A DNA stretch of 64,000 nucleotides from assembly GCA_965279375.1 (NCBI GenBank), contig OZ257156.1, forward strand, positions 896,001-960,000, in the 5' to 3' direction. Position numbers and translations under genes: made by a program. This DNA is from Gemmatimonas sp. GTDB lineage: Bacteria > Gemmatimonadota > Gemmatimonadetes > Gemmatimonadales > Gemmatimonadaceae. Positions 11,283 to 27,306 of this stretch are shown here, in pieces; the stretch's first letter is position 1, and each line of letters opens with the position of its first letter. The notes beneath the pieces were generated by a model that had not been told where the DNA came from, did no database searches, and saw only the letters and a list, made by a program, of their open reading frames with translations.

Positions 11283-11333
11283 CGCGATGGTGGTATGGGT
11301 TTGACGTGTGTAGCGCGTGAGTCGAGTGTGTTA

Positions 11334-14300: not shown

Positions 14301-14990
14301 CGTACCATCTGCGCCCACCTGCACCTGCTGAAAACCTCGCACTATTTTCTTCTTCTTCCAAGTACGTGTTTCCCAAAGCGACGCAAGTTTTTCGATCGCG
14401 AAGTCGGCAACTTTGTCGGCGGCTTTCTTCATGATCTTGACCACGACAAACTTGATGACTTTGCTGACGGGGCCGCGCCGTCCGGTTGCTGTCGCCGAAC
14501 TCTGGGTGGTAATGCGAAAGCGAAGTACGCCCTGTGGGCTCGACGAACGCTTTTTGTCGGTTGACTTTGCAGCTCTGCGCTTTCGTGCGCCGCGCATTCC
14601 TGTGCCGAGGATGTCACCGACCGCGAAACTCACGGCATCCGATGCATGACGTGCAATGACGACGTGCGTTTGGCGATCTGTCGGCTCGTATTCGAATGTG
14701 AGCGGTTGATCCTCCACGTTGCGCCGTGCTGGAAGCACCGCTTCGTGCGAGCTTACCATCTCGATTTCATTCGTGGCAAGCAGTGTCTTGACAAATGGGT
14801 CGATCCCGCTGTCGGCCCGTTGGCCTCGTCGCACTCGCCGTGCGCGTTCCGCGAGTGGTGCTGCGGAGATAAACCACGCACTGGTGCTCGTAATTGCACC
14901 TCTGCCCGAAGTACCTGATCTCTTCGTACTGGCGCGCTTGGTCGTTGATCGAGAGGCAACGGAGCGCTTGGGTCGGCGAGGCGAGGGCAT
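11334..14990 (-). CDS. Alpha/beta-hydrolase + CHAT (caspase-like) protease + Cys-rich C-terminal domain
   Basis: Lipase-like FIHGTFS, THSRG, NDLVVP, VTH; CHAT motifs PWE, LHFIGHG, VFLNAC, VANQFSV, WAVPVLF; C-terminal H...CPGY...LCRQC. Confidence 0.85.
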   Translation of the reverse strand: MPSPRRPKRSVASRSTTKRASTKRSGTSGRGAITSTSAWFISAAPLAERARRVRRGQRADSGIDPFVKTLLATNEIEMVSSHEAVLPARRNVEDQPLTFEYEPTDRQTHVVIARHASDAVSFAVGDILGTGMRGARKRRAAKSTDKKRSSSPQGVLRFRITTQSSATATGRRGPVSKVIKFVVVKIMKKAADKVADFAIEKLASLWETRTWKKKKIVRGFQQVQVGADGTLSLVQLKNSRKLPEGRKLLFIHGTFSNFQGGFGALGKTRGADGQTFFDKVRATYGERIYAFNHFTVSETAEANGRDLMLALSTTNQEFDVITHSRGALVLRTILESAELAPLAKRFSVGNVVLVAGPNEGTPLASPDRWHLFTDWIGNVIDLFPDNPFTTGADFLVESVAWLAGKVGDVIPGLATMNPRGPLIDELQSLPHPAGTWSALASNHEPSEGVVARMVDVGVDGFFGMANDLVVPTRGGWRVGTPTMTIVGNDRVGCYGPGGNLRTNGPVDVTHTTFFNQTETVDFLARAVLGQPQGLPTMQLDAELPTKRDGRRGNGAMTSDARGAATPPINPPSTTLPPETDGNHPPRVSTVRPSRQSFLDEVLHLFIVSPLNALAMPKENDSDYGLSQMVANSTKGDTALLIASFRNARVIEPFRPTRGEARDRYQLIDNTHKRIKGYIDGNSRYKSLPSEEELRKYGALLFDSIFPGEVRRLYDTARAELKERRLNVCLTSTIGWVADKPWEFAFDPYEETFICTEEVNFIRNSITAVPADALGARSGKLRILVIAAQPVGAGALSIDEEISMVRSAFEPLIRAGLAEVQVEVDVTPQKLHELLSLTDVIGDRFDVLHFIGHGEFDETTGFGYLLFEDRSGRSHELRADIFRQIAAHRGVRLVFLNACETGTGFGRRHPNRVFDFSSGVAPMLVSGGVPAIVANQFSVLDVSATAFAQHFYWALSIGRTIGDAAREARVAVNYSIAGEAIDWAVPVLFARNPDDVLVPHADTSATAIARMTDLAPATTARRSLTRSTKPTIAIWDLNYVIPELNRVVQRLNDAQEVFVFERANLTAPLGTWRRSRQRNTQHAVLDAAEVETKLKPTLERLGVAQLCCITTMALWSDGKESLSASVSDDGRISIVSTGGRLEKMHAPYTIERFLANALAFSLSEVSTHSIGPKNCPGYYNNEEDIRWDAGPLELCRQCAGKIKKPTRRAAIKGILRAFD

Positions 14991-15314
14991 ATAGGGACCT
15001 CAGTGGGAAAGACCAAACATTTCGGGGGCAATTCGCGCAAGAACAGTGTTGCGATCTGTGAGTTCGCGCAATTCGGCAGCTGCCCAGTCGACGGCTTGCT
15101 TGAAGGATTCACTTCGCGCATTTCTCGCGACCTGATCAGGCAACGCCATTCGCGCGGTCGGTGACTGGCGGGCTGTTCAATACCGATCTGACGCCGTGGC
15201 ATCACCATCAATCGCAGTGGTCCGAGCGTCTCGCGCTGGCACGTTCCTTCCTCGGCGGCCTTCGGTGTTGAACGCGCCGTCTCCCTGCGACGCAGAAGAC
15301 CGGGTCCCATACAC

Positions 15315-15537
15315 AGCGAACGTCGCGGAATCGTCCTTCGGCAGTTTGAAGAAGGAACGGGTAAAGAAGCACATCTATCGGAACGGCGAGCTCGCGACCG
15401 TGGAGATCGCAGACGATATCAACCGCTTCTTCAATTGCATACGGCGGCACGGTCACTTAGACGGGCTCAGTCCCGAGCGATTTGAAGCCGCTCACAAGTC
15501 CCGCTGCCGACGTGTCCACTAAGCGCTGGGAACTCCA
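15315..15537 (+). mobile_element. IS3-family remnant (transposase C-terminus and right inverted repeat)
   Basis: ANVAESSFGSLKKERVKKHIY...FNCIRRHGHLDGLSPERFE matches the IS3 OrfB integrase-core end; terminal GTGTCCACTAAGCGCTGGGAACTCCA at 15512-15537. Confidence 0.85.
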
Positions 15538-15676
15538 ATTCCTCCTCAATCATGACCCACGGCTCGCCGAGTGGACCCTCCTTCAGCGAGAAGCTAACGC
15601 CTCTGTGATAGGTATGTGCGCGATCTCCTGTTGTTCGATCATTGGGGCCAAGGCATTCTGGAAAGTCTGATACCAT
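15538..15676 (-). pseudogene. Cassette ORF truncated by the IS3 end
   Basis: ATG about 45 nt after the GTTAGGT core site; the frame (MVSDFPECLG...WVMIEEE) runs directly into the IS terminal repeat. Confidence 0.5.
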
Positions 15677-15714
15677 TCGAGAAACTCTAGCGTGGGTGGT
15701 ACCGTCTTAGGCCC

Positions 15715-15827
15715 ACCTAACGCTCGCGTTCTGTTGCAGCGCCCTTCAACAGGATGCGGCCAGCGAGCGCAGCGAGCAATAGGCCGCACTCCTTGAAAGC
15801 GCTCTCAACAGCAACGCAAGGTTAAGC
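15715..15827 (-). mobile_element. Integron attC site
   Basis: Minus strand: GCTTAAC-CTTGC-GTTgCTGTTGaGAGCGC...GCGCTGCAACAGAAC-GCGAGC-GTTAGGT; canonical R''/L''/L'/R' layout with internal stem. Confidence 0.9.
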
Positions 15828-16068
15828 GGCGCTGGCGCGCACCCGCCCACCCCCGGATTGCGGGTTTCGCCCACTTACTCATCGGAGCGTCATTCCGGTG
15901 GTCACTGGACGGTGGTTCGAGGGCCTCGGCGCGCCCGATCCCCTGTTTTGCACTAGGCTCTTGAGTCGCATCCATATGTATACAGTTCGCGGCCTCCGTC
16001 CTCTAAGCCACCCTACTGCTTCTTCGTCGACCGGGTGCGATTCCGCTCTTTGGCCAGCCTCTAGCCGT

Positions 16069-18495
16069 TCAATCCAGTATGGGTGGGTAGGCAAGAGGGT
16101 CGGTGGAGGCCATCAGATCGTACACCGCCTGAAATACGCTCTCGGTGTTCGGCTTCGACATGTAGTCGCCGTCGCGGCCGTACGCAGGTCGATGCGCTGC
16201 CGCCGTGAGCGTTCGCGGGGCCGCATCCAGCCAGTGGAAGCCGCCTTGCCTTTCCAACACCTCTTGCATCATGTACGATGTCGCGCCGCCGGGCACGTCC
16301 TCGTCGAGGAAGAGGACACGGTTTGTTTTCTTCAACGACTCAACAATCGCGCAGTCGATATCGAACGGCAGCAACGACTGGACATCGATCACCTCTACGC
16401 TCACACCGGTGGTCGCAGCGAGAGAGTCCGCCGCCTCCAGGGCGACCTGACAGCACGCGCCGTACGTCACGACGGTCACGTCCTTCCCTTGCCGGATGAC
16501 CTCGACGCGGCCGATCGGCGTCTTCAGCTCACCGATGTTCAGCGGCATCCGCTCCTTCCGATAGTACCCGTTCAGGACCTCGACAACCACGGCCGGGTCC
16601 CCGGATTGGAGGAGGGAATTGTAGAACCCAGCCGCACGGGTCATGTCGCGTGGGACGAGCACGTACATTCCTCGCAAAAGGTGCACGATCGCCGCCATCG
16701 GTGAGCCCGAGTGCCAGACTCCGACGAGACGATGACCTCGTGTCCGCACGATGACTGGTGCTTTCTGTCCGCTCTTAGTGCGGTAGCGGAGCGACGCGAG
16801 ATCGTCGCTCAGGATCTGTAGCGCATAAGGCATGTAGTCGACGTACTGGATCTCTGCAATTGGACGAAGTCCACGCATCGCGAGGCCGATCGCCTGGCCA
16901 ATGATGGTGCACTCTCGGATACCGGTGTCCGCCACGCGACTCTCCCCGAAGCGAGCCTGCAGCCCCGCGAATCCTTTGTTGACGTCCCCGAGACGACCCA
17001 CGTCTTCGCCGAACGCGATGATACGTGGGTCGCGCGCGAGCGCGGCATCGAAACAGGCGTTCAGCACACGATGAGCATCAACGCCGCTCCCATCTCCGTA
17101 CACCGGTGCCACCGACTTCACACGCAATGCGGAGTCCGCGCCTTCCGCATAAAGGTGGGAGTCGTATTGCTCGCGGCTTGCCTCCCGCTGTTCCCTGACC
17201 CATCGCCGGAGCGGTTCGACAGCCGCAGTGTCGCATCCCCGGACAGCGACTAGGGCGCGGTGGGCCGTCGACGCAAGATCGCGACGCAGCGGCTCGGTGC
17301 AGGCAGCCACCGCGGCGCTTGCCGCGGCGAACTCTGCGTGGCCGTCGGGACATGCCGCACCAACCTCTTTCAACGCGGCAGTCAGCGACCGTGCCTCGGC
17401 CAGGATCGGAGCCTGGTAGTCATTCCATGCCTCGTCACGCTCCCGCCGCACGTACTCACGCTCCCCGCGCTCCAGCATCTCGAGGTCTTCCACCGACGCG
17501 AACCCGTCGGTGATGAGCCATGCGCGCATCCGCGCGAGGCAGTCATGCTCCTTCTCCCAGGTCAAGCGTTCAGTAGACTTGTAGCGCTCGTGGCTCCCAG
17601 TCGTCGAGTGACCGAGAGGTTGCGTTAGCTCGACCACATGCACGACTGCCGGCACGTGGTCCCGTCGCACCCCCGCGGCCGCGATGGCGAACGTGTCGAC
17701 AAGGGCCGGATAGTCCCAGCCGAGTACGGTCATAAGCTCGAGACCGCCTTTCCTGTTTGGCGTGCGACGGAATCCCTCTAGCAGCTCTGCGAGGTGCCCC
17801 TTTGTTAGCTGAAGCTCGTTCGGGACCGAGATGCCATAGCCGTCGTCCCAGACTGAGAGCAGCATGGGGACCTGCATGACGCCGGCGGCGTTGAGCGTCT
17901 CCCAGAACATCCCTTCGGCGCACGATGCATTTCCGATTGTACCGACGGCGATCTCGTCGCCGTCGCGCGAGAACCGCGTCATGGAGCGCAGCTCTGGCAA
18001 CGTCCGGTAGAGCTTGGATGCCTGTGCGAGCCCGAGAAGTCGAGGCATCTGTGCAGCCGTCGGCGAGATATCCGCGGAAGAATGGAAGTCATCAACAAGT
18101 GCCTTCCACTCGCCCGACTCGTCGAGCATGCGAGTGGCGAAATGAGCGTTCATGCTGCGACCCGCGGACGAGGGTTCGGCAACGACGTCGACGTGTCCGT
18201 ATAGTTGCGCAAAGAACTGACGGACGTCGAGCGCGCCGAGCGCGAGCATGAGCGTCTGGTCGCGGTAGTAGCCGGACCGGATGTCGCCAGGCCGCAGCGC
18301 GCGGGCCAAGGCTACTTGGGCGACTTCTTTTCCGTCTCCGAAAATCCCGAACATGGCACGTCCGGTTATGACCTCATCGCGGGCGACGAGGCTCAGCTGG
18401 CGGCTCCGGTAGGCGGTTCGGTAGTCCTCCAGCACGAGGGCCGGATCGAGTCCCTCCACCGCCCTCTGCTGGATAGTGCTCCCGACAAGTGTCAT
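16069..18495 (-). CDS. Branched-chain 2-oxoacid dehydrogenase E1, fused alpha/beta
   Basis: GDGKEVAQ, SGYYRDQT, ThDP-motif variant GNASCAEG...WDDGYGIS, GEDVG, DTGIRE, EIQYVDY, WHSGS, EVIDVQSLLPFD. Confidence 0.92.
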   Translation of the reverse strand: MTLVGSTIQQRAVEGLDPALVLEDYRTAYRSRQLSLVARDEVITGRAMFGIFGDGKEVAQVALARALRPGDIRSGYYRDQTLMLALGALDVRQFFAQLYGHVDVVAEPSSAGRSMNAHFATRMLDESGEWKALVDDFHSSADISPTAAQMPRLLGLAQASKLYRTLPELRSMTRFSRDGDEIAVGTIGNASCAEGMFWETLNAAGVMQVPMLLSVWDDGYGISVPNELQLTKGHLAELLEGFRRTPNRKGGLELMTVLGWDYPALVDTFAIAAAGVRRDHVPAVVHVVELTQPLGHSTTGSHERYKSTERLTWEKEHDCLARMRAWLITDGFASVEDLEMLERGEREYVRRERDEAWNDYQAPILAEARSLTAALKEVGAACPDGHAEFAAASAAVAACTEPLRRDLASTAHRALVAVRGCDTAAVEPLRRWVREQREASREQYDSHLYAEGADSALRVKSVAPVYGDGSGVDAHRVLNACFDAALARDPRIIAFGEDVGRLGDVNKGFAGLQARFGESRVADTGIRECTIIGQAIGLAMRGLRPIAEIQYVDYMPYALQILSDDLASLRYRTKSGQKAPVIVRTRGHRLVGVWHSGSPMAAIVHLLRGMYVLVPRDMTRAAGFYNSLLQSGDPAVVVEVLNGYYRKERMPLNIGELKTPIGRVEVIRQGKDVTVVTYGACCQVALEAADSLAATTGVSVEVIDVQSLLPFDIDCAIVESLKKTNRVLFLDEDVPGGATSYMMQEVLERQGGFHWLDAAPRTLTAAAHRPAYGRDGDYMSKPNTESVFQAVYDLMASTDPLAYPPILD

Positions 18496-18512
18496 GATGG
18501 TCGTCCTTTTCG

Positions 18513-20978
18513 TTACGACACGATGTTCACAAGTACTGGCGAGACGTAGACCACGCGACGCGGTTCTCTTCCATTCAGGTGCCGCTGCACCACCTCGCTG
18601 GCTGCCGCCGCCGCTTTGGTCTCATCAGGCGCGAGACTCGCGTTGACGCGAATACGGTCTCGCACTCTTCCGTTGACCTGCACCACGAGGAGATGCGTCT
18701 CCGCTCGCACCGCGCTCTCGTCCACGGTAGGCCAGCGTTGGAGGTGCACCGAGTATGGCTTTCCCATTCGGCACCACAGTTCCTCGGCTATGTGCGGCAT
18801 GAGGGGTGCTAGCATGAGAACGAGCATGTCACACGCCTCGACCCATTCGTGCGTCCCCTCGAGTCCGTCGCGCTGAGCTTCGATGAGATCACTGGTGAAC
18901 TGCATGAGCGACGGCACGACGGTGTTGAATGCGAACCTGTCAAGGTCGTTGGTCACTGACAGTAGCGTACGATGCGCGCTGGCCTTGAGGGCGGTGCGAG
19001 CGGCCGCACTGGCCACCGGCTCCGTAGGATGCTCCCTGCGCGTCGCGAGCAACGCCCACACGCGCCGCACCCAGCGCGCGGAACCTTCAATGGCTTTTTC
19101 GTTCCATGGTCCCCCCTGGTCCCAGCGGGCGAACCATGCCAAGTACACGCGGACAACGTCTGCACCGTAGCGGTCGACGAGATCGTCCGGAGCGACCACG
19201 TTCCCCTTCGACTTCGACATCTTCGTCGCATCCGCGCCCAAGATCGGGCCTTGGTTGCGAAGCTGGAGCATCGGCTCGGGACCACTCGTGAGTCCGATGT
19301 CGCGAAGCGCCTTGTGGAAGAAGCGCGTGTAAATCAGGTGCATCGTCGCGTGTTCGACACCGCCAGTGTAGGTGTCGACCGGCATCCAGTAGGCGTACTC
19401 CTCCTTGGAGAACGGACCCGCATCGTCGTGCGGGCTCAGGTAGCGAAGGTGGTACCAGGATGAACAGACGAACGTGTCCATGGTGTCGGAATCCCGCTCC
19501 GCATCACCGCCGCAGCGCGAACACTGCGTCATCCGCCAAGTCGGGTGCAGTTTGAGAGGGCTTTCTCCAGTTGGGAGCCACTCCACGTCTTCGGGAAGGG
19601 TGACAGGCAGCTCACCGTCCGGAACCAGCACCGGACCGCACGACTGGCAGTGCACGACGGGAATGGGCGCTCCCCAGTACCGCTGCCGTGATACCAGCCA
19701 GTCACGGAGCCGATATTGTACAGTGCGGTGGCCGACGCCCTTGTTCTCGAGAAACTCGATGGTGCGACCGATTGCGTCGGCAGCCGAGGTTCCCGTGAGC
19801 GATCCCGAGTCCACCATGCGACCACGGCCGGTCCAGGGGAGCTTCGGACCCTTGGACGAGTCCGTGACATCGGTCGGCTGGAGCACCTGCCGGACCTTAA
19901 GTTCGTAGCGTGTCGCGAAGTCGAAATCCCGCTGGTCGTGCGCCGGCACACCCATTACCGCCCCAGTGCCGTACCTCGCGAGGACATAGTCGGCAACCCA
20001 GATCGGCACCCGGTCACCGGTCAACGGGTGGGTAGCAAAGGCGCCTGTATCGACGCCTGTCTTGACGCCGTCCGTCGATTCACGCTGAACGTCCGACTGG
20101 CGTAACGCGGCGGAAACATACGACATGACGGGATCGCGCTGGTCGACCTTCAGAAGCCGCGGAAGAAGCGGGTGCTCGGGGGCGATCGCGAGGAAGGTGA
20201 CGCCCCATAGTGTGTCCGGGCGCGTCGTGAACACTTCCAGCGATTCCCCGGCATCCGTCGCGAATCGAACGAGAGCTCCTTCGGACCGACCGATCCAGTT
20301 GGTCTGCGCAAGCTGCACGCGCTCGGGCCAATCCAAGCCTGAGAAGTCCAGCAGCTCTTCGGCGTATCGCGTCGTTCGAAAGAACCACTGCTCCAGTTCA
20401 CGCCGCGTCACGGGGGATTCGCAGCGTTCACAGATACGGTCGTCGGTGATAACCTGTTCGCGCGCTAGGGTCGTGTTGCACCCAGGACACCAGTCCACGG
20501 CGGCGCGCTTACGGTACGCAAGCCCGGCCTTGAAGAGCCAGACGAATAGTTGCTGTGTCCAGCGATAATACTCGGTGTCGGACGATACCATCTCGCGCCT
20601 CCAATCGAACATCGCGCCCATGCGCTGAAGCTGGCTGCGCATGCGATCGATGCTGGCGTAGGTCCACTGCGCCGGGTGCACGCCGTTCTTGATCGCGGCG
20701 TTTTCCGCCGGGAGCCCGAACGCATCGAAGCCCATCGGGAAGAGCACATTGAACCCCTGCATGCGCATGAACCTTGCCCGCATGTCGGACGGCACCATGG
20801 CATACCAGTGACCGATGTGGAGGGCGCCCGACGGATACGGCAGCATCGTGAGCGCAAAGTGCTTGGGACGCGTATGGTCGACGCGCGCACGATCGATGCC
20901 GTCCGCGGCCCAGCGCGCCTGCCAACGGGTCTCGACCTCTCCCGGCCGGTATTCTGATCTAATCTTCGCATCGACCAT
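18513..20978 (-). CDS. leuS: Leucyl-tRNA synthetase (probably an accessory copy)
   Basis: MLPYPSGALHIGH, GFDAFGLPAENAA, Zn knuckles, CP1 editing motifs TTRPDT and GTGAVMGVPAHDQRD, DWLVSRQRYWG, GGVEHA, KMSKSKGN, VQVNGRVR. Confidence 0.97.
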   Translation of the reverse strand: MVDAKIRSEYRPGEVETRWQARWAADGIDRARVDHTRPKHFALTMLPYPSGALHIGHWYAMVPSDMRARFMRMQGFNVLFPMGFDAFGLPAENAAIKNGVHPAQWTYASIDRMRSQLQRMGAMFDWRREMVSSDTEYYRWTQQLFVWLFKAGLAYRKRAAVDWCPGCNTTLAREQVITDDRICERCESPVTRRELEQWFFRTTRYAEELLDFSGLDWPERVQLAQTNWIGRSEGALVRFATDAGESLEVFTTRPDTLWGVTFLAIAPEHPLLPRLLKVDQRDPVMSYVSAALRQSDVQRESTDGVKTGVDTGAFATHPLTGDRVPIWVADYVLARYGTGAVMGVPAHDQRDFDFATRYELKVRQVLQPTDVTDSSKGPKLPWTGRGRMVDSGSLTGTSAADAIGRTIEFLENKGVGHRTVQYRLRDWLVSRQRYWGAPIPVVHCQSCGPVLVPDGELPVTLPEDVEWLPTGESPLKLHPTWRMTQCSRCGGDAERDSDTMDTFVCSSWYHLRYLSPHDDAGPFSKEEYAYWMPVDTYTGGVEHATMHLIYTRFFHKALRDIGLTSGPEPMLQLRNQGPILGADATKMSKSKGNVVAPDDLVDRYGADVVRVYLAWFARWDQGGPWNEKAIEGSARWVRRVWALLATRREHPTEPVASAAARTALKASAHRTLLSVTNDLDRFAFNTVVPSLMQFTSDLIEAQRDGLEGTHEWVEACDMLVLMLAPLMPHIAEELWCRMGKPYSVHLQRWPTVDESAVRAETHLLVVQVNGRVRDRIRVNASLAPDETKAAAAASEVVQRHLNGREPRRVVYVSPVLVNIVS

Positions 20979-21029
20979 TGCGTTGTCCTCGTTTTTGCGT
21001 CGTGGCGCGCAGGATTCCCGTACGCCGAA

Positions 21030-22340
21030 TCAGGCGGCGAGCTGAGAGTCGTTGAGTGTGAGGCACTGGTAGGCCGCGTGGATCGTGGCCGCGTCCACGC
21101 CGCCCATGAGGCGTGCTTCGCGACAGAGACCACGAACGCACTCGCGGGCGATCGCTCGCGAATCGTCGTTGACGCGCTCTGCGTCCCACGTCGGTAGGAG
21201 CTCGTGCGACACCGCGACAACGCCGCCGCCGGAAACAATGGGATCGGGGATGAACACAATGCCAACGGCCGTGAACTCCTGAAGCAGCGCGTCGCCGCGA
21301 TGCTCGATCGAGCCGAGTTGGTCGTTGCCGGCGCCGAGGATCAGGCGAACGCGTGCGCCCGCGCGGCGAGCCGCGGCCAGGATCTCACCTCGGGTGCGCA
21401 GATCGCCGACGGGGCGCGTGCCTAGGAAATCGGTGCCTCCTCCGTTCGGGCTGACGACCTCGACCGTCGGATCTTCGAGCGCGGCAACCTCAGAGTCGAA
21501 GACGCTGCCACGCTCGACCAATCGGCGCAGCAGCGCCAGGTGGCGCTCTTCATCGACCTCGCCGCCGCGCGCCTTTGTGGCACGATAGAGACGATCCGCG
21601 GAATCGAGGGACGGATCGAGTTGCGGATCGAACACAACGACGTCGGCGCCAGCGCGATCGAGCAGGTACGCGAGAGGGAGACCAACCTTGCCGAGACCAA
21701 GAACGAGCACCCGAACCTCATCCAAGGATGTCTGGCCCTGCAGCTCCTCGATCGTCTCGAGCAGGCCCGCCTTCACGCCTTCCGCTGTCGCCTCACCAGT
21801 GTCACGTCCGCACTTGAGGCCGATCGTGTAATCGGTGAGGGAGTTCATCAGTTCCAGGTCCGCGTGACTCAGGCCCTGATCAAGCGAGCCAAGGTAGTCG
21901 CCAGCAATGAAGTTCAGGAGCGCCGCATGCGCGCGAAGGCGAGCCTCTCCCACGCCGGTGCCACCGGGGCCGAGTTTGTGCTCCGCAGGAACCCAGATCG
22001 TCCCCTTGCCTCCGGCCCACGAGTAGTGCCGCACGTCGGGTCCCAAGCGGCACGCCGCTCCATAGATGAGCGTCGTCTTGGCGTCCATGGCCCGCGCGAG
22101 CGCCCCAGCGGTGCGCAAGGCATGGGTGTGATCAGGGCACTGAACGATCCGGGTGCCACCAAGACCGACGCGGTTACCCCCCAACGCGGTCTTCGAGACG
22201 ACGACCGAGCTGTAGATCCGGGCGTCGGGGGCGACCGAAGACCCGTTGAAGGCTTCGAAAAGGACGTAGCCGCCATCGAATCGCGCGGGACCTCGAAGTG
22301 TGAGATCCCCCTGCTGAACTTCGCGGTAGTGCATCGACAT
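21030..22340 (-). CDS. Divergent Leu/Phe/Val dehydrogenase family protein
   Basis: LGGTR, LARAMDAK, GGK, D in SLDQG, ATAEGV, Rossmann GLGKVG, GAGNDQL, PD...GGVV; purine-rich RBS GAGAAAGG before ATG 22340. Confidence 0.82.
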   Translation of the reverse strand: MSMHYREVQQGDLTLRGPARFDGGYVLFEAFNGSSVAPDARIYSSVVVSKTALGGNRVGLGGTRIVQCPDHTHALRTAGALARAMDAKTTLIYGAACRLGPDVRHYSWAGGKGTIWVPAEHKLGPGGTGVGEARLRAHAALLNFIAGDYLGSLDQGLSHADLELMNSLTDYTIGLKCGRDTGEATAEGVKAGLLETIEELQGQTSLDEVRVLVLGLGKVGLPLAYLLDRAGADVVVFDPQLDPSLDSADRLYRATKARGGEVDEERHLALLRRLVERGSVFDSEVAALEDPTVEVVSPNGGGTDFLGTRPVGDLRTRGEILAAARRAGARVRLILGAGNDQLGSIEHRGDALLQEFTAVGIVFIPDPIVSGGGVVAVSHELLPTWDAERVNDDSRAIARECVRGLCREARLMGGVDAATIHAAYQCLTLNDSQLAA

Positions 22341-22431
22341 GGCCTTTCTCTCGCACGAAAAGGGTGAGCCCGAGCAAAGGACGGACGGCAGGCCAGCCGC
22401 ATCTGCGCAGGCGGTCAATCTACTTACCGCG

Positions 22432-22460
22432 ATAATATATCATATTTATCTTCATTGCAA
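22432..22460 (-). promoter_or_regulatory. Sigma70-like promoter for the dehydrogenase-leuS-E1 operon
   Basis: Minus strand TTGCAA-N17-TATTAT inside a very AT-rich patch. Confidence 0.65.
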
Positions 22461-22529
22461 GAGTTTATATCGATTAAAATAGCCTAAGGTATCGAGTTGA
22501 GTGCGTTCCGCGGGGAGGCGTCGTTGGGT

Positions 22530-22559
22530 TTGACGGATTATCTATGGAGCTCGTAGTAT
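22530..22559 (+). promoter_or_regulatory. Sigma70-like promoter for the RSH-ATPase operon
   Basis: TTGACG-N18-TAGTAT, 45 nt before ATG 22605; GGAGAG RBS. Confidence 0.55.
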
Positions 22560-22604
22560 TCCTTCGGGGGATTCATAGACGGGCCGATAATCGTTGGAGA
22601 GAAC

Positions 22605-25600
22605 ATGATGAATACCGAGCCGAACGGAGATAGATTTCACACCCCGTTGATGCGTGGCGCCGGGACCGGTGCGGTCCTCGCCGTTCCGGCAAGCCGTGTG
22701 GAGTGGGATCACTGTCAACGCCTTGCGGCGATCCTTCACCAGCGGTTCGACGATCCCGTGCTCACCGAAGCGGGGTTGCTGCACGGCATAGGTGCCCACG
22801 CAGTTGAACGACTCGGCGCGAGCGGAAGGCCAGAGGTCGTCGCGATTCTCGAGGATGTCGAAAAGCTTCGCGCGCTTGAGTTCCGTGACGAGGATCTGAC
22901 GGGAAGTGCTCTTCGAAACGTCTTGCCGCTTCTACGGGATCCGCGGTCCGGCGTGCTGCTGGCGTTCGACCAACTGGACCACGTCGACCCCGATCAATCC
23001 TTTAGACGATGGAGCGCAAAGTTCCACCGTCTTCCCGAGATCGGCGTGGACGCGCTTCCGAGAGAGACCGCGCATCTCGACCCGTTAGTGGAACTCGGGT
23101 CCTATCCACGATTTCTTCGCCGCGTGGTGGCTCCGGTCGCCGCACTCAGTGGATTTTGGCGCGAGCGAAATGCTCTGGATGACTGCGCAACCCTGATTTG
23201 GGACCCCGATCGTGCTAAGGACATCTCCATCGAGGTGAGGCGAGCATCGGGGGCGTGTCGACGCTTGGTTGGGGAAATTGAGGCTTCCTTTGGCGATGGA
23301 GCCGACGCTTCGGTGCTTTGGGAGTGGCGGCACCTCGGTCGGCTGGATCGAGAACTTCCGCGGTCGAACGATCAACTTGCCAGCGCTTTCGATGCACGCA
23401 TCGGAACCCTCGGCTTCGTCACGGTCGTGTGCGTGGACGAGGACGAGTGCTACCGGCTTCTAGGCCGCATTCATCGTCACTTCGAGGGGAGGGGGGAGGC
23501 GTTCCGGGACTATATCGGCAACAAGAAGGGCGACGACTACCGTGCGCTCCACACGCGCGTGGGTCGCCAAGGAGCGGGACGCGGTCCGCGAGAGATCTCC
23601 ATCCGCTTGATTTCCCGAAGTGATGACTTGAAACGAAGCCAGCCGGCTCGACGGTGGCATGATCTGCGCCCGACGAATCCCGCCGGTCCGATGCGCGTGT
23701 TCACCCTCCACGGCGACCCGGTCGATCTTCAGCCGGGTGCTACTGTGGCTGCGTTCGCGGTCGAGGTACACGACGCTCTGCTATTCTACGCGATCGGCGC
23801 CCGGGTCAACCGTCGAACGGTCGAGCTAAACTACAAGTTGTCGCCCGGCGACGTCGTTGAAGTGCTAAAGAGCGAGCGGCTGCAGCCGCTTCCGTCTACT
23901 TGGAAGACTTGGATCCCCGAGATTCTGCCGCAGTCGACGACTTCGTTAAGGGAGTCGACGCCGAACCCAACGCATCGAAGAGTGCGAAAGGCGTATAAAC
24001 GCTTGTTCGAGAGCGAACTCGGCCGGCAGGGATACGCTGAGCTGGAACGACATCTCATACGAGAAGGAATCCGTCGGGTTCCCAGCATGGACGAGATCGG
24101 CCGATTCATTCTTGCGGCAGTGAACTCTTTGTCGGGAGCGCCCCGCAGCGCATGGCTGGACGCGGATTGGTGGTTGCAGCAGATCGGGGCGCTGGTCTAC
24201 AACTCAAAAGACTTCGACCCACTCTTCGAAGTTCAACTCACGAAGGATTTCCAAGGTCTTCTCTTCGAGAAAGTTCGAGACTTGGTCGCCGCCAGCCAGC
24301 TCTGTGAGGAGCTCGGTATCGATCCGCGGACGGCTGGTACTTTCTCTCTGGTACGATGCTCGGCCTGCCATCCTACGACGAGCGACCAAATCCTCGTCGA
24401 ACGGACATACTCGCTACTCACGCTGCACAGGGCCGGTGCTGACTGCGCCAAGGACGCTAGGCCGGTCGACGCCATTGGTCCCTTCGAAGATCAGTTCCTC
24501 TGGATTGAAGGACCGAATAGAGTGGGGTTTGCGGCGACTGTCGCCGAAACATTTTCGAAACACGGTATCGACATCGAGGAGATCATCGCACGAGCGATAA
24601 ATCAGCAGCGAGCTGCCGTCAGGGTGCAGCTGGCGCCTCTGCCGGCTACTCGACTGAAGCAGGTCCTCGAAACATTGCGATCGAACCATGGACTGAAGGT
24701 GACCGACCCGGACGCCGGCCAAGCGACCAGTGAAGAGCGAAATCACTTTCCTCCACGGTCAATGCGCTCGGCCACCCCGCTGACAGATTTCGTTGACTCG
24801 CCATACCGCGTCGGTGACGCACTCTATCAGGACGCGGATTTCTACGGTCAGCAAAGCTCTCTGACGAAACTAAGGACCATCTTTGAAGGCCTGTTGGCGA
24901 ACCCACGTGGTCACGGCCGTCGTTGCTCGATACTGGGGCCGATTAAGGTGGGGAAGACATCGCTGGCGCTCGCGTTCCTCCGCAGGATGTCGAAGGACCA
25001 CGATAGGGTGACGACGATTTATGAGCGGGCGACCCAAACAATGACGTGGCAGGAGATGGAGGCGAATCTTCGAGAGACGATCCTGAAAGAATCTGCCGAG
25101 GTTGCCGCACGCAACAATCGTTCTTTCGACCTTCCACCCGACATCGCACGCAACACGAACATGTACACGGTCGTCAATTCTGTGCGCGAACGTACCGGCG
25201 GTCCAATGATTATCGTGATCGACGAAGCACCGTGGCTGTTCAAAACCTCGCACGAGGGCGGAGAGGCATCCCGACTCGCAGAGGTGGTAGCGCAGCTGCT
25301 TCGAGCCGGCGTGATGTTGATCTGCGTTGGCCCCAAAGTCGGATTCGAGCGTATCCCACCGCGCTTGAGGCCGATCCTTCGCGATGGGACCGATGTCTCC
25401 GTCGACAAGCTGACGCTTCTTGAGGTTCGGGACCTGCTCTTAGCGCGACAGAAGGGAGGTCGATACTCCATCCTGATCGAATCCGGCATTGCCGAAGCTG
25501 TCATGAAAGCAACAAGAGGGAATCCGTTCTGGACAGCCGCGCTCGCAGACAAAATGTGGGAGCTGAACCATGAACGGTACGACAAGACCGTTTTTGAGAA

Positions 25601-25946
25601 CGCGCAAGCTCGTCTGGCGCGTGACAAAATAAAGTTCTACGACCGCTGGGATGATGAGGATCAGTCTTGGCATCCAAATTCGACGATCAAAGGAATTGTC
25701 CGCAAGCTCCTGCAGGAGCTTGCGAAAGAGACTCCTCCCACGGACAAGATGGTTCGAATGCGTACCCAGACTGCTCTCCGCCGTCTGGCGGATGATTCAA
25801 TTCCCTCCGCTGACGAGCTACTCAAAGAACTCGAAGATCTTGGAACCATAGAGCTAAACGCTGAGAGCGCCGGCAAGGATCAGATGTGGTCGCTCGCGGC
25901 ACCAATTTTGGCGCTTCATCTTCGAGAGCATCTTCACAATGCGTGA
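22605..25946 (+). CDS. Degenerate long RelA/SpoT homolog (pseudo-HD, pseudo-synthetase, TGS, Zn-finger, ACT) fused to STAND/AAA-type P-loop ATPase
   Basis: AGLLHG, VVAPVAALSG, ECYRLLGRIH, FRDYIG...DYRALHT; TGS VFTLHG...GATVAAFAVEVH...GARVN...GDVVEV; CSACHP...LHR...DC; ACT NRVGF; SPYRVG, GPIKVGKT, IVIDE, TRGNPF. Confidence 0.8.
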   Translation: MMNTEPNGDRFHTPLMRGAGTGAVLAVPASRVEWDHCQRLAAILHQRFDDPVLTEAGLLHGIGAHAVERLGASGRPEVVAILEDVEKLRALEFRDEDLTGSALRNVLPLLRDPRSGVLLAFDQLDHVDPDQSFRRWSAKFHRLPEIGVDALPRETAHLDPLVELGSYPRFLRRVVAPVAALSGFWRERNALDDCATLIWDPDRAKDISIEVRRASGACRRLVGEIEASFGDGADASVLWEWRHLGRLDRELPRSNDQLASAFDARIGTLGFVTVVCVDEDECYRLLGRIHRHFEGRGEAFRDYIGNKKGDDYRALHTRVGRQGAGRGPREISIRLISRSDDLKRSQPARRWHDLRPTNPAGPMRVFTLHGDPVDLQPGATVAAFAVEVHDALLFYAIGARVNRRTVELNYKLSPGDVVEVLKSERLQPLPSTWKTWIPEILPQSTTSLRESTPNPTHRRVRKAYKRLFESELGRQGYAELERHLIREGIRRVPSMDEIGRFILAAVNSLSGAPRSAWLDADWWLQQIGALVYNSKDFDPLFEVQLTKDFQGLLFEKVRDLVAASQLCEELGIDPRTAGTFSLVRCSACHPTTSDQILVERTYSLLTLHRAGADCAKDARPVDAIGPFEDQFLWIEGPNRVGFAATVAETFSKHGIDIEEIIARAINQQRAAVRVQLAPLPATRLKQVLETLRSNHGLKVTDPDAGQATSEERNHFPPRSMRSATPLTDFVDSPYRVGDALYQDADFYGQQSSLTKLRTIFEGLLANPRGHGRRCSILGPIKVGKTSLALAFLRRMSKDHDRVTTIYERATQTMTWQEMEANLRETILKESAEVAARNNRSFDLPPDIARNTNMYTVVNSVRERTGGPMIIVIDEAPWLFKTSHEGGEASRLAEVVAQLLRAGVMLICVGPKVGFERIPPRLRPILRDGTDVSVDKLTLLEVRDLLLARQKGGRYSILIESGIAEAVMKATRGNPFWTAALADKMWELNHERYDKTVFENAQARLARDKIKFYDRWDDEDQSWHPNSTIKGIVRKLLQELAKETPPTDKMVRMRTQTALRRLADDSIPSADELLKELEDLGTIELNAESAGKDQMWSLAAPILALHLREHLHNA

Positions 25947-27306
25947 TCCGACGCAGATGGGTGGCGGAGCCCCTGCAAATTCTCCGCCAGCTGAGTTCAA
26001 CGGTAACCCGTTCTTCTTCGACGAGCTGATAACGCCGTTGAGCCGGACACTGAAAGAACAAGGCCGATACCTCCGCGGATTTAGGGGGGCAGGAAAAACT
26101 CACATCCTGCGAGCGTTCTCGGTGATCGCCGAATCGATGCTTCTGATGAACCGAAGCCTGAGGGATCGGCCAATCATCTCACCGCTCGATCGGTCGGCGG
26201 AAGAAATCGACATCGTGCTGCGTGACATCGCGCGATCGAAAGGATCGAAGGGAGTTGTCCTCATCGACGACCTAGATCTTCTGCTAGAGCACTCGCAAAA
26301 AGATGGCTTGGACCGCTGGGACTCGCTTTCCGACTCACTGGAGCGGATTTTCACCAGACTTGAGAATGTGCACATTCTCTTCACGACCACCCGCAATCCA
26401 GTTGACATCGGAACGCGGAATCAGATGCTCTCCAACTTCTTGCAAAATGCTCGGGAGCAGCCGCTTGAGCCTTGGAAAACCGCAGAAGAGTGGCACCGAA
26501 AAGTGCGGGATATTCTGGGAGCAAGTCTCGGAGGGGACGCGTGCAGCACTGACGTCGTGGCGAAAGGCATAGTCATACTGAGCGGAGGTCATCCGACCCT
26601 CATCGGTGCCGCCGTGCGGCGGATTCGGAAAACGATGTCGCAGTCGAGCGGATGGATCCCCCCGACCAGGCTTGCGCCCGTGCTCAAGGAGATCCCGCGC
26701 CTTCTCACCGACGACGGCCTCCCGTCTATTAGACGTCGCATCTTAGCGCTGGCCCCAGACCAGCGTAGGGCGCTGGCAGATCTGGCAGGGCATAGCGTAG
26801 GCTACCGTGCGCTCCTCGAGAGGCGAATCGGCGAGGAGCTCACAAATGCAGGGCTTGTACGCAGGCATGACGGCCATCGCGAAGGTCAGCGCGAGTATTC
26901 GATTCCGTCCCCGCTAATTCGGGAAGAGGCATCTGCCGAGCTTTCTTCCCGGGTGGACGATTTCGTTTTGCTTGACCCGTCGACAAGTAATCCAGACCAA
27001 GAAGGCGCGGTGGTCGCCGGTTCGGGATCGACGACTCGCATCGTCAGTCTAAGCGGTCGTTCATGGCAACTCGCGCGTGTGCTCTATGACAACGCGGGGA
27101 AACCGCTGGCGCCCGACGAACTAAATCGACTGCTCGGAGAATTGGTGACCGAAACAGGAAAGCCATTCGTCGTTCACGCCGCGCTCCAACGACTCAGGTC
27201 TTCATTGAAGAACGAGCTGCCGAATCTACTACAAACACATCGCGGCAGCGGATACCTGTTTGACGTACCGCAGCTGCGAGATTACTCCAGGCGACCCAGT
27301 GCTTGA
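25939..27306 (+). CDS. P-loop ATPase with C-terminal OmpR-type winged-helix domain
   Basis: NPF, GFRGAGKT, VVLIDD, SGGHP; C-terminal LARVLYDNAGKPL...ALQRLRSSL...LQTHRGSGYLF; 8-bp overlap with the upstream stop. Confidence 0.8.
   Translation: MRDPTQMGGGAPANSPPAEFNGNPFFFDELITPLSRTLKEQGRYLRGFRGAGKTHILRAFSVIAESMLLMNRSLRDRPIISPLDRSAEEIDIVLRDIARSKGSKGVVLIDDLDLLLEHSQKDGLDRWDSLSDSLERIFTRLENVHILFTTTRNPVDIGTRNQMLSNFLQNAREQPLEPWKTAEEWHRKVRDILGASLGGDACSTDVVAKGIVILSGGHPTLIGAAVRRIRKTMSQSSGWIPPTRLAPVLKEIPRLLTDDGLPSIRRRILALAPDQRRALADLAGHSVGYRALLERRIGEELTNAGLVRRHDGHREGQREYSIPSPLIREEASAELSSRVDDFVLLDPSTSNPDQEGAVVAGSGSTTRIVSLSGRSWQLARVLYDNAGKPLAPDELNRLLGELVTETGKPFVVHAALQRLRSSLKNELPNLLQTHRGSGYLFDVPQLRDYSRRPSA

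Follow-up and report, generated by a model that had tools for sequence, protein, structure and literature searches.

What is a protein built on the plan of the stringent-response factor RelA/SpoT, but fused to an NTPase, doing opposite genes for leucine metabolism and leucyl-tRNA charging in a Gemmatimonas genome? We addressed this question in a stretch of 64,000 nucleotides (the window; all coordinates below refer to it). Our preferred answer, which we hold tentatively and with a probability of about 0.4, is that this protein (the sensor) detects failure of tRNA charging and, through a second NTPase encoded directly downstream (the helper), drives transcription of the adjacent cargo genes.

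Layout of the locus

ORF calling supports five real genes in two divergent operons, three leftward and two rightward, lying around a shared control region:

15196..15522, plus strand: integrase-core (rve_2) remnant, a 108-aa ORF (PF13333, 3.5e-07)
16069..18495, minus strand: E1 of a 2-oxoacid dehydrogenase with alpha and beta fused, 808 aa, at the distal end of the leftward operon
18513..20978, minus strand: second LeuRS, complete, 821 aa
21030..22340, minus strand: amino-acid dehydrogenase of a divergent ELFV type, 436 aa, leading the leftward operon
22341..22604, no strand: control region shared by the two operons, AT-rich at its core, with a sigma-70-like promoter for each direction
22460-22432, minus strand: leftward sigma-70-like promoter, TTGCAA-17-TATTAT
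22530-22559, plus strand: rightward sigma-70-like promoter, TTGACG-18-TAGTAT
22605..25946, plus strand: sensor (RSH-TGS-ZnF-ACT-NTPase), 1113 aa
25939..27306, plus strand: helper (NTPase-wHTH), 455 aa

The tight divergent arrangement and the AT-rich control region reported by the first-pass annotation are both confirmed. Gaps in the leftward operon measure 17 and 51 nt, and the sensor stop overlaps the helper start by 8 nt, so that the helper is probably translationally coupled to the sensor. The dehydrogenase has 436 aa if it starts at the ATG at 22340, and its ORF stays open to a TTG at 22418 (21030-22418). GC content is 0.50 across the 264-nt spacer, compared to 0.61 for the locus, and 0.23 in a 60-nt core. 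Two sigma-70-like promoters occur in the spacer, one per direction, against 0.2 expected from shuffled sequences, and an Rfam search of the region matched no family, T-box included. The region 22341-22604 may serve as an operator to which the helper would bind.

A dip in GC content (about 10001-27000) covers the five-gene block, whose left edge is marked by the integrase remnant, with a CHAT gene beyond. The block is missing from 25/25 genus genomes, making the island strain specific. The leftward genes have near-genomic GC contents (0.62 to 0.66) and the sensor-helper pair lower ones (0.56 to 0.61), which suggests separate origins for the two operons.

A RelA-derived putative sensor and its helper

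The sensor, encoded on the plus strand, is composed of the following parts:

About residues 30-340, nt 22692-23624: pseudo-HD and pseudo-synthetase domains (Pfam RelA_SpoT at 273-336, 1.9e-07)
Residues 363-422, nt 23691-23870: TGS domain (Pfam, 1.6e-10)
Between TGS and zinc finger: helical linker
C585/C588/H608/C614, nt 24357-24446: zinc finger
Residues 634-692, nt 24504-24680: ACT/RRM domain (Pfam ACT, 2.9e-04)
Residues 746-1113, nt 24840-25943: ORC/Cdc6-STAND-type NTPase with winged helix (AAA_16 at 746-883, 1.8e-08)

The domain order matches that of RelA/Rel on the ribosome (HD-SYNTH-TGS-helical-ZnF-ACT/RRM; 5IQR, 5KPS, and 8FR8), but in the sensor both catalytic centers are degenerate and a 370-residue NTPase-winged-helix module is appended. 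In the family alignment LLHD has become LLHG, with the HD dyad replaced, and three synthetase motifs are replaced in all nine aligned members: the ATP-binding R/K motif (GRxKHxxS to WEWRH), the Mg-binding Asp motif (DxxAxR to GFVTV), and the catalytic Glu motif (EIQIRT, or EVQIRT, to ISIRL). The RSH part is therefore probably a pseudo-enzyme, with hydrolase and synthetase motifs gone, as the earlier label of pseudo-RelA/SpoT implied. The protein scores only 71.6 bits against NCBIfam spoT_relA (cut-off, 499.2), and a normal 726-aa Rel is encoded elsewhere in the same genome.

In contrast to the degenerate catalytic centers, the whole C-terminal half of RelA is present (TGS, helical, zinc-finger, and ACT/RRM domains). 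Positions 364-701 of the sensor-family profile match ribosome-bound RelA (8fr8_I, 7.7e-51, from position 366 on; 5iqr_8, 6.2e-47), aligning with RelA residues ~399-793 (E values of 1e-47 to 1e-51). With this half, RelA reads a deacylated tRNA that occupies the A site of the ribosome. Within the family, three of the zinc-finger residues (C585, C588, and H608) never vary and the fourth, C614, hardly does; the TGS histidine (H389 in this sensor), which we take to sense the CCA end, is kept in 41/62 members. Walker A (with K784) and Walker B of the appended NTPase are also invariant. Its model (pLDDT, 85.4) has an NBD-helical-WH fold, with 2qen as top match (TM, 0.65/0.73), followed by ORC1/Cdc6 and NB-ARC proteins.

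The helper carries an AAA domain (Pfam, 45-154) with Walker A (G52 K53), Walker B (D110 D111), and GGHP (216-219) motifs, and ends in an OmpR/PhoB-type winged helix (Trans_reg_C, residues 369-441; 30.0 bits versus a cut-off of 26.2). Its model (pLDDT, 76) resembles NRC2, Apaf-1, CED-4, ORC/Cdc6, and 2qen (Foldseek E from 6e-08, TM up to 0.45), and it is predicted to be a STAND/ORC-like NTPase of the same class as that of the sensor. The sensor family has 117 representatives at E<=1e-30, and the helper lies directly 3' of the sensor, overlapping or abutting its stop, in all 11 other loci with sequence downstream; a further locus, L035, retains a helper fragment there. The expected co-occurrence of the ATPase-wHTH partner was thus found throughout, and sensor and helper appear to form a rare, conserved two-gene signaling module. 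We found no published description of such a system.

Both chains have the P-loop NTPase NBD-helical-WH core that STAND regulators (MalT and AfsR/SARP-LAL) combine with a DNA-binding domain, and the modeled NTPases are likely to constitute a ligand-gated assembly switch. Unlike MalT or AfsR, the pair assigns sensing and DNA binding to two separate chains, has a sensor domain that is RelA derived rather than made of TPR/sensor repeats, and carries as its DNA-binding domain a C-terminal wHTH of the OmpR type that lacks a receiver domain. Two same-class NTPases that are co-encoded and divide recognition from output also recall NAIP-NLRC4 and plant sensor NLR-NRC helper pairs, and NRC helpers, Apaf-1, and CED-4 rank high in the fold searches with the Gemmatimonas pair. 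The likeness goes no further than fold and logic: a wHTH stands where those systems have a pore or protease platform as output, and the hetero-assembly of sensor and helper is a prediction.

The leftward genes and their counterparts elsewhere

The LeuRS is complete, as first annotated: it exceeds the NCBIfam cut-off (TIGR00396, 907.6 bits versus 548.4) and retains HIGH, KMSKS, and the CP1 editing motifs (TTRPDT; GTGAVMGVPAHDQRD). The genome encodes two LeuRS copies that are 43% identical to each other, and in 25 other genus genomes the matches to this copy all lie at just 37 to 48% identity. It is 59 to 61% identical to the LeuRS of three Thermoanaerobaculia-class genomes, in each of which (3/3) a homologue of the window's dehydrogenase is immediately followed by the LeuRS gene. 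This marks it as a foreign extra copy, acquired horizontally, beside the housekeeping one. These three genomes have the dehydrogenase-LeuRS pair without the sensor, and in two the linked LeuRS is the only one; the dehydrogenase-LeuRS pair therefore has no need of the sensor.

The dehydrogenase had been called a Leu/Phe/Val dehydrogenase. Its closest solved relatives are indeed leucine (6acf, 2e-12) and phenylalanine (1.4e-11) dehydrogenases, but it is only weakly ELFV-like (PF00208, 7.1e-07; ScyB-type Trp dehydrogenase, 4e-15) and belongs to a rare, divergent subfamily (31 clusters at about 35 to 47% identity) rather than to typical LeuDH. For the proposed fused branched-chain E1, the fusion of alpha and beta is evident from E1_dh (44-359, 6.1e-21), Transket_pyr (475-639, 6.2e-20), and Transketolase_C (662-767, 2.3e-21) in one ORF. 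The branched-chain class is not established, because PDH E1 beta (8.8e-49) and 2-oxoisovalerate dehydrogenase E1 beta (3.4e-37) match about equally in searches of the PDB, and no E2 or E3 gene lies within the locus.

Genes were called with a custom greedy ORF script in a small sample of 13 evaluable loci, including that of Gemmatimonas. An amino-acid oxidoreductase and an aaRS-related gene occur together in four, the other three being the following:

L021: dehydrogenase/aaRS-like (pseudo-aaRS) fusion and a second HisRS (two hisS)
L039: DAO-type oxidase and two ProRS (two adjacent proS of different types)
L019: amino-acid-hydroxylase-like protein and a PheRS-beta B3_4 domain

Within the L021 fusion, the dehydrogenase part is 26% identical to the Gemmatimonas dehydrogenase (2e-08). 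The suggestion that the pair accompanies aaRS and amino-acid oxidation genes for other amino acids therefore holds for 3/12 other loci, but most carry TIR, kinase, or unknown genes, and 9/13 loci have no aaRS-related neighbor. The leucine genes themselves, whose recurrence had been anticipated, are found in none of the other evaluable loci, and the E1 has no homologue there, nor at any of the three dehydrogenase-LeuRS loci. In 3/13 loci an aaRS passes the NCBIfam cut-off (P = 0.014 to 0.08 by a rough binomial calculation with a background of 4 to 8% that was assumed, not measured), each time as an extra copy (two leuS, two hisS, and two proS). In 8/13 loci the cargo gene is divergent across an AT-rich spacer of 264 to 783 nt. 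At L021 and L039 it shares an operon with the helper, after a 63-nt gap in the former and with a 4-nt overlap between helper stop and oxidase start in the latter.

Weighing the explanations

The main rival is that the pair is an autonomous conflict (e.g., antiphage) system of defense islands that senses translation damage, with a helper acting on DNA or distant genes and with the leucine operon and other neighbors as passengers or separate systems. The family is rare and patchy (1/40 relatives, and 2/401 and 1/401 genomes in two phylum samples), the island has low GC content and an IS remnant, and an IS or transposase adjoins L019 and L038. Conflict-type neighbors (TIR, PD-T4-6/MAD6-like kinases, UvrD-PDDEXK, RHS, and CHAT) occur in 6/13 loci, and the L026 helper weakly resembles the MADS component mad8 (1.4e-08). 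The sensors of L031 and L038 are 81% identical, yet their flanks are unrelated; DNA homology (83.5%) is confined to the two genes, ending ~115 nt inside the sensor 5' end, so neither spacer nor neighbors are conserved along with the pair. Since cargo is unrelated in most loci, residence in a defense island fits as well as a role in regulation. In the part of their survey on which we draw, Kaur, Burroughs, Iyer and Aravind 2020 (PMC7159879) list TGS and RelA nucleotidyltransferase domains as rare components of NTPase-centered conflict systems with variable effectors, naming them as effectors of vWA-MoxR/ternary systems; that part describes no RSH-STAND sensor accompanied by a wHTH helper or by aaRS cargo. 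However, the pair contains no recognizable toxic effector domain, and its output is a winged helix. Helices of the OmpR/PhoB type are typical of transcription activators. PADLOC finds no known defense system, and the operon coupling at L039 and L021, together with three extra-copy aaRS neighbors, is hardly due to chance. We regard this explanation as rather unlikely.

It is improbable that the leucine module is itself one of several variable effectors, draining leucine and perturbing tRNA-Leu charging so as to halt an infected or attacked cell. TIR and kinase genes do take its place beside the same pair elsewhere, and dehydrogenase followed by E1 is, by the established biochemistry of both families, an irreversible exit from the leucine pool. 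However, motifs for both synthesis and editing are intact in the LeuRS, and two genomes rely on a close relative of it as their sole housekeeping enzyme, so that it is not obviously harmful; the E1 is missing from every other locus.

We give similarly little credence to an ordinary metabolic regulator, large and ATP binding like MalT/AfsR, whose ACT domain senses branched-chain amino acids and controls leucine catabolism, with LeuRS as passenger. ACT domains bind amino acids (Rel binds branched-chain ones), dehydrogenase and E1 are catabolic steps one and two, and the supposed regulator and target are divergent. Against this stand the missing E2/E3, a strain-specific island, nonmetabolic cargo elsewhere, and retention of the full ribosome-binding half of RelA beyond ACT.

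Family-wide conservation of the N-terminal half, in which eight residues are nearly invariant (W239, W241, G270, Y283, H290, D302, Y312, and T317), means that it is under selection for something, but that it has a new enzymatic activity as the output in place of transcription, such as the tRNA 3' end modification of toxic small alarmone synthetases, is very improbable given the motifs replaced in 9/9 members and a relative (G009) that lacks this half entirely.

We therefore return to sensing of tRNA-charging failure. When charging fails, the RelA-derived half would engage uncharged tRNA, ribosomal or free, which would free the sensor NTPase to assemble with the helper in a nucleotide-dependent manner; once clustered, the winged helices would switch on the neighboring promoter. 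Counting against this reading are the nine loci without an aaRS-related neighbor, the six with conflict-type ones, the unrelated flanks of L031 and L038, the dehydrogenase-LeuRS pairs that lack the sensor, the GC difference between the two operons, and the G009 relative devoid of the RSH N-terminal half. The leftward operon could be induced as a reserve for leucine charging and perhaps also clear leucine look-alikes or excess 2-oxoacid, for example when LeuRS inhibitors or leucine antimetabolites are present. Carrying a second, xenologous aaRS is a known way of becoming resistant to inhibitors, and the Gemmatimonas LeuRS gives only distant matches to the NCBIfam models of MupA and MupB, IleRS examples of inhibitor-resistance enzymes. 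In T-box riboswitches, uncharged tRNA switches an aaRS gene on; the logic proposed here is the same, with a protein instead of RNA as sensor. The two-gene switch may thus sense failed tRNA charging by means of a protein, and with its cargo the locus would be a protein counterpart of T-box control.

Gene content and control region of the locus

We find the five genes of the first-pass annotation as five long open reading frames (ORFs), three leftward and two rightward.

Genes of the locus (long ORFs with Pfam/NCBIfam matches)
16069-18495, leftward: fused E1 alpha/beta
18513-20978, leftward: bacterial LeuRS (the island copy)
21030-22418 (or 22340), leftward: weakly ELFV-like dehydrogenase
22605-25946, rightward: 1113-aa protein with RelA_SpoT, TGS, ACT, and AAA_16 matches (the sensor)
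25939-27306, rightward: 455-aa AAA protein with Trans_reg_C (the helper)

The leftward ORFs are separated by 17 and 51 nt, and the rightward ORFs overlap by 8 nt. The 264-nt spacer between the two operons has the AT-rich character ascribed to it at first reading (GC of 0.23 over a 60-nt core, against 0.61 for the locus) and holds one sigma-70-like promoter in each direction (2 observed versus 0.2 expected). A 13-nt element at 22346-22358 and 22591-22603, 85% complementary between strands and hence the same sequence in the sense of each gene, lies immediately upstream of both divergent start codons and takes in the GAGAGAA ribosome-binding sites of both. Rfam, searched at E<=1, matched nothing but a snoRNA, by chance, and no tRNA genes were found in the window.

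The five-gene block forms the right end of a dip in GC content at ~10001-27000 (0.55-0.62, compared to ~0.65), and its left boundary is an integrase-core remnant at 15196-15522. On the far side of this remnant (9732-14990, minus strand) are genes for a 1218-aa DUF7379 and CHAT protease-like protein (Pfam, 6.4e-41 and 7.9e-27; PADLOC SAVED_CHAT, 4.6e-13 for the CHAT part only) and then a 516-aa protein of unknown family, which share the low-GC stretch with the block. The CHAT-side gene is probably a separate conflict gene.

A degenerate RelA fused to an NTPase, and its helper

Judging from its sequence, the sensor is a fusion of a fossil RelA with an NTPase. In an alignment, nine members of the family were compared with four ordinary Rel proteins (the 726-aa Rel of this genome and three others), in which the HD and synthetase motifs have the roles known for Rel enzymes. 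In the family, the HD dyad has become HG: LLHG stands opposite LLHD, and other members have G, R, A, or S as the last residue. VEDT has disappeared as well, and DQLDHVDP stands opposite DRLHNMRT. On the synthetase side, the basic ATP-binding motif is replaced by WEWRH, the Mg-binding Asp segment by GFVTV (GFVTVVC), and EIQIRT by ISIRL, without the Glu of EVQIRT. The sensor also scores only 71.6 bits against NCBIfam TIGR00691 (spoT_relA; cut-off, 499.2). Lacking both the catalytic features and a sufficient curated score, the protein deserves the "pseudo-RelA/SpoT" label it had been given and falls outside the Rel/RelA/SpoT enzymes, from which it is clearly derived.

In contrast to its catalytic half, the sensor retains the C-terminal regulatory half of long RSH proteins (TGS, helical, Zn-finger CC, and ACT/RRM domains). 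Pfam detects TGS at 1.6e-10 and ACT at 2.9e-04, the latter under the gathering score. C585, C588, and H608, ligands of the Zn finger, are the same in all 62 aligned sequences, and the TGS histidine H389 occurs in 41. Over positions 364-701, a profile of these sequences matches structures of RelA bound to the ribosome (7.7e-51 and 6.2e-47). The remainder of the protein has the P-loop core and the NBD-helical lid-winged helix arrangement of ORC/Cdc6-STAND NTPases, with Walker A/B residues (G783, K784, and S786; D873 and E874) invariant in the same 62 sequences. A model of residues 715-1113, built with 13 homologues (pLDDT, 85.4; pTM, 0.86), shows an NBD-helical-winged-helix module. Its nearest match is 2qen, an archaeal Walker-type ATPase (TM, 0.65/0.73), followed by ORC1/Cdc6 and NB-ARC resistosome subunits (TM, 0.54-0.60).

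The helper has invariant Walker A/B motifs (G52 and K53; D110, D111, and D113 in 12 sequences), a GGHP motif, and a C-terminal winged helix of the OmpR/PhoB type. Its Trans_reg_C match (residues 369-441) scores 30.0 bits, above the Pfam gathering score of 26.2; two other helpers score 28.9 (L026, above) and 25.5 (L032, just under). It shares this winged helix with OmpR/PhoB-type activators but differs from them in that Pfam finds no N-terminal phospho-receiver (Response_reg), the N-terminal part being NTPase. The modelled fold (pLDDT, 76) matches NRC helper NLRs, Apaf-1, CED-4, and ORC/Cdc6. A complex prediction for sensor residues 730-1113 with the helper, run without controls, scored 0.07, which is evidence neither way.

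We conclude that the sensor family is real, rare, and always paired. An exhaustive protein search recovered 117 representatives at E<=1e-30, mostly ~1,050-1,230 aa long, colinear over their full length, and 24-32% identical; a word-index protein search returned only ordinary Rel proteins and no full-length relative. Among 40 relatives, only one, the same-genus G009, has a sensor relative, a 750-aa form that begins at the TGS domain. No new loci emerged from a 401-genome sample of the phylum (only the genome studied here, G000, and G009) or from one of the phylum of L026 (its own genome only), and tblastn of plasmids gave no match. Loci were collected by scanning for a degenerate TGS-motif DNA pattern, which yielded true loci for 5 of 7 matches in species genomes and 8 of 12 in metagenomes. 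It recovers about a quarter of known members (35/132 and 32/132), so the 13 evaluable loci are a biased quarter-sample of the family.

Whether the helper accompanies the sensor had been put forward as a check. In profile searches it directly follows in all 11 of the scan and G009 loci with sequence there, its start codon overlapping or abutting the sensor stop; in L035 a helper fragment lies at the contig end, and the L033 and L034 contigs end inside the sensor. The G009 locus (L019, 9508-16106 on contig C20) combines its short sensor, which lacks the RSH N-terminal half, with its own helper, a divergent gene pair that encodes a PheRS-beta B3_4 domain protein and a membrane hydroxylase resembling GntB, and an adjoining rve transposase. 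The metagenomic loci L031 (667-5272) and L038 (6579-11190) are 83.5% identical in DNA over the two genes only, with unrelated flanks. Their sensors are 81% identical, and the DNA homology stops inside the sensor 5' end. This confinement to two genes suggests that the pair moves as a unit. An IS1595 transposase lies just downstream of the pair in L038.

PADLOC 2.0 has no model for the pair and found no known defence system at the locus: four of the five genes matched none of its families, and the sensor matched only mad8, at 0.0028. In L026 the helper matched mad8 at 1.4e-08 and the sensor had no match. Compared to known STAND-type signalling regulators, the pair is new in its sensor, in the division of the system between sensor and helper, and in the kind of cargo (the genes adjoining it). 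The literature searched contained no description of an RSH-STAND fusion, a sensor/helper pair, or a link to aminoacyl-tRNA synthetases (aaRS). The passages of Kaur et al. 2020 (PMC7159879) consulted name TGS and RelA domains solely among the rare effectors of other NTPase systems and describe no RSH-STAND fusion, which the figures or supplements might show. The words ATPase, NTPase, and AAA are absent from the available part of Atkinson et al. 2011 (PMC3153485).

Leucine genes and other cargo

The LeuRS is a bona fide, complete bacterial enzyme, as first annotated (907.6 bits versus an NCBIfam cut-off of 548.4; Pfam editing domain, 1e-61; Anticodon_1, 2.8e-21), with HIGH, KMSKS, and both CP1 editing motifs (TTRPDT and AHDQRD). 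It is one of two leuS copies in the genome and 43% identical to the other, a housekeeping gene (L002, 1468-3909; G000:C1:2383711-2386152) that has HVGN in place of the canonical HIGH; both have KMSKS and the editing motifs. As 25 other genomes of the genus contain only matches 37-48% identical to the island copy, we consider it unique to this strain. We dropped an editing-defective, mischarging LeuRS, as the editing motifs are intact, and a biosynthetic cluster with a self-resistance LeuRS, as no biosynthetic genes flank the locus.

The other two leucine labels were too strong. Pfam finds fused alpha and beta domains in the E1, but its beta part scores alike for the pyruvate dehydrogenase and 2-oxoisovalerate types, all under the NCBIfam cut-offs, and no E2 or E3 ORF occurs within 16069-27306, so that "branched-chain" is not warranted. 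The closest solved relatives of the dehydrogenase are indeed Leu/Phe dehydrogenases (a PDB LeuDH over residues 46-239, 2e-12), and its translation contains LGGTR- and GGK-type motifs, which we take to be ELFV dehydrogenase motifs. However, it belongs to a divergent subfamily: PF00208 matches residues 207-261 only (29.6 bits versus 23.4) and PF02812 is not detected.

This subfamily comprises 31 clusters at ~35-47% identity, several labelled Thermoanaerobaculia or Acidobacteriota; within the class of L021 it occurs in 3 of 300 additional genomes (301 if that of L021 is counted). In these three Thermoanaerobaculia-class genomes (L053, 9400-14164; L054, 9299-14171; L055, 9248-13007) the gene immediately after the dehydrogenase is a LeuRS that shares 59-61% identity with the island copy, with a DAO-type oxidoreductase next in two. 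No sensor lies within 10 kb, and in two genomes this LeuRS is the only one. In L054 an amine-oxidase/RidA fusion and a RidA lie upstream and an MNT/HepT pair downstream. Dehydrogenase and LeuRS thus make up a preexisting, conserved gene pair that probably came from a lineage of this kind; what this island alone adds is the E1 and the sensor pair. A tie in function that links class I aaRS bodies to ELFV dehydrogenases, for which the literature searched held no description, appears widespread, because the dehydrogenase/class I aaRS-like fusion of L021 (13470-17081, plus strand) is a large family. It has 165 matches of ~1,000-1,250 aa, the best 120 of which all carry PF02812/PF00208 plus PF00133. 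Its HIGH and KMSKS motifs have degenerated to PHLG-like and PMR-like forms.

Neighbours were called with a greedy ORF script at the 13 evaluable loci (L034 and L035, with too little flank, were left out); the window counts in two groups.

Cargo of the pair at 13 loci
Amino-acid oxidoreductase plus aaRS-related gene, 4/13
Window: dehydrogenase, LeuRS, E1
L021: 63 nt past the helper, a 1203-aa fusion of a ScyB-like dehydrogenase with a class I aaRS-like body
L039: DAO/MSOX-type oxidase, start overlapping the helper stop
L019: fatty-acid-desaturase-family protein and PheRS-beta B3_4 domain protein
Conflict-type genes, 6/13
Window: CHAT protein
L025: kinase like PD-T4-6 and MAD6
L026: TIR protein
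L027: UvrD-PDDEXK protein
L029: kinase and cNMP-binding PP2C phosphatase
L038: RHS and IS1595
No recognisable cargo, 4/13
L024, L031, L032, L033

In L021 a convergent true HisRS comes next (354 bits versus 287), one of two hisS in that genome; in L039 the oxidase is followed by an archaeal-type ProRS (488 versus 437) and then a bacterial-type ProRS (580 versus 558). The desaturase-family protein of L019 resembles the arginine hydroxylase GntB at 74.5 bits, far under the cut-off. The L029 cargo (11322-19257, plus strand) includes a possible cyclase (771 aa, weakly cyclase-like; an Atlas lead only, 0.90), the phosphatase, with a cNMP domain similar to that of Pycsar effectors (6.6e-18), a protein of unknown kind, and a kinase-TPR protein similar to MAD6 and PD-T4-6. 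As a set, these genes look like a second-messenger cascade. For the 541-aa cargo protein of L033, Atlas gave no usable lead. Cargo is divergent over an AT-rich spacer of 264-783 nt at 8 of the 13 loci.

An aaRS-related gene together with an amino-acid oxidoreductase, as in the window, thus recurs beside the sensor at three of the 12 other loci. Cargo as a whole is heterogeneous. An aaRS lies nearby at 3/13, a modest excess (binomial P = 0.014 to 0.08 for an assumed, not measured, background of 4-8%). Each of the three is an additional copy with an amino-acid oxidoreductase at its side, a context that adds weight to the link, although the amount is not quantifiable.

A putative switch reading uncharged tRNA, and its meaning

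We propose, with a probability of about 40%, that the pair regulates the adjacent cargo. It would act as an NTPase switch made of sensor and helper. That the RelA half is retained speaks for uncharged tRNA, ribosome-bound or free, as its signal; the helper's OmpR-type winged helix speaks for transcription as the output, and the divergent or operonic cargo for local targets. The target in this genome would be the spare LeuRS operon, in a protein-based analogue of T-box control. Four main objections lie behind this estimate. L031 and L038, with sensors 81% identical, have only the two genes in common; the cargo is heterogeneous, with many defence-like neighbours; the dehydrogenase and LeuRS function elsewhere without the sensor; and the GC content of the pair differs from that of the cargo.

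The more specific version of local control is doubtful. Here an NLR-like pair, whose fossil RelA docks on stalled ribosomes with uncharged tRNA and makes no (p)ppGpp, would assemble with a helper ATPase that binds DNA and turn on cargo particular to the locus: in some hosts spare aaRS genes and enzymes that destroy amino-acid look-alikes (Leu here; Pro and His or Val-like elsewhere), in others suicide or signalling effectors (TIR, kinases). Slightly less likely still is an autonomous conflict system, for which the shared two-gene unit and the defence-like neighbours speak; on the other side stand the winged helix and the recurring extra aaRS. That the cargo is itself the effector, with TIR and kinase genes beside the pair elsewhere, or that the pair is a catabolic regulator, with dehydrogenase and E1 as the first two catabolic steps, both seem improbable, and to the same degree. 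That the sensor's N-terminal half is still active is very improbable given its replaced motifs.

To our knowledge, RelA-type sensing of uncharged tRNA feeds alarmone synthesis only. If local control is the correct reading, one lineage kept the sensor, gave up its chemistry, and connected it to a transcription helper and an ATPase of the STAND type, so that a second and independent output pathway would keep watch on the ribosomal A site. Translation integrity would then be under a surveillance that does not need the stringent response, a protein counterpart of the T-box, and bacteria would have a paired sensor/helper NTPase paralleling NLR pairs. There are also two uncharacterised couplings of an amino-acid dehydrogenase to a class I aaRS, as separate genes in an operon and as a widespread fusion. 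Extra aaRS recurring next to amino-acid oxidoreductases hint at an unstudied means by which cells deal with aaRS inhibitors or with amino-acid antimetabolites.
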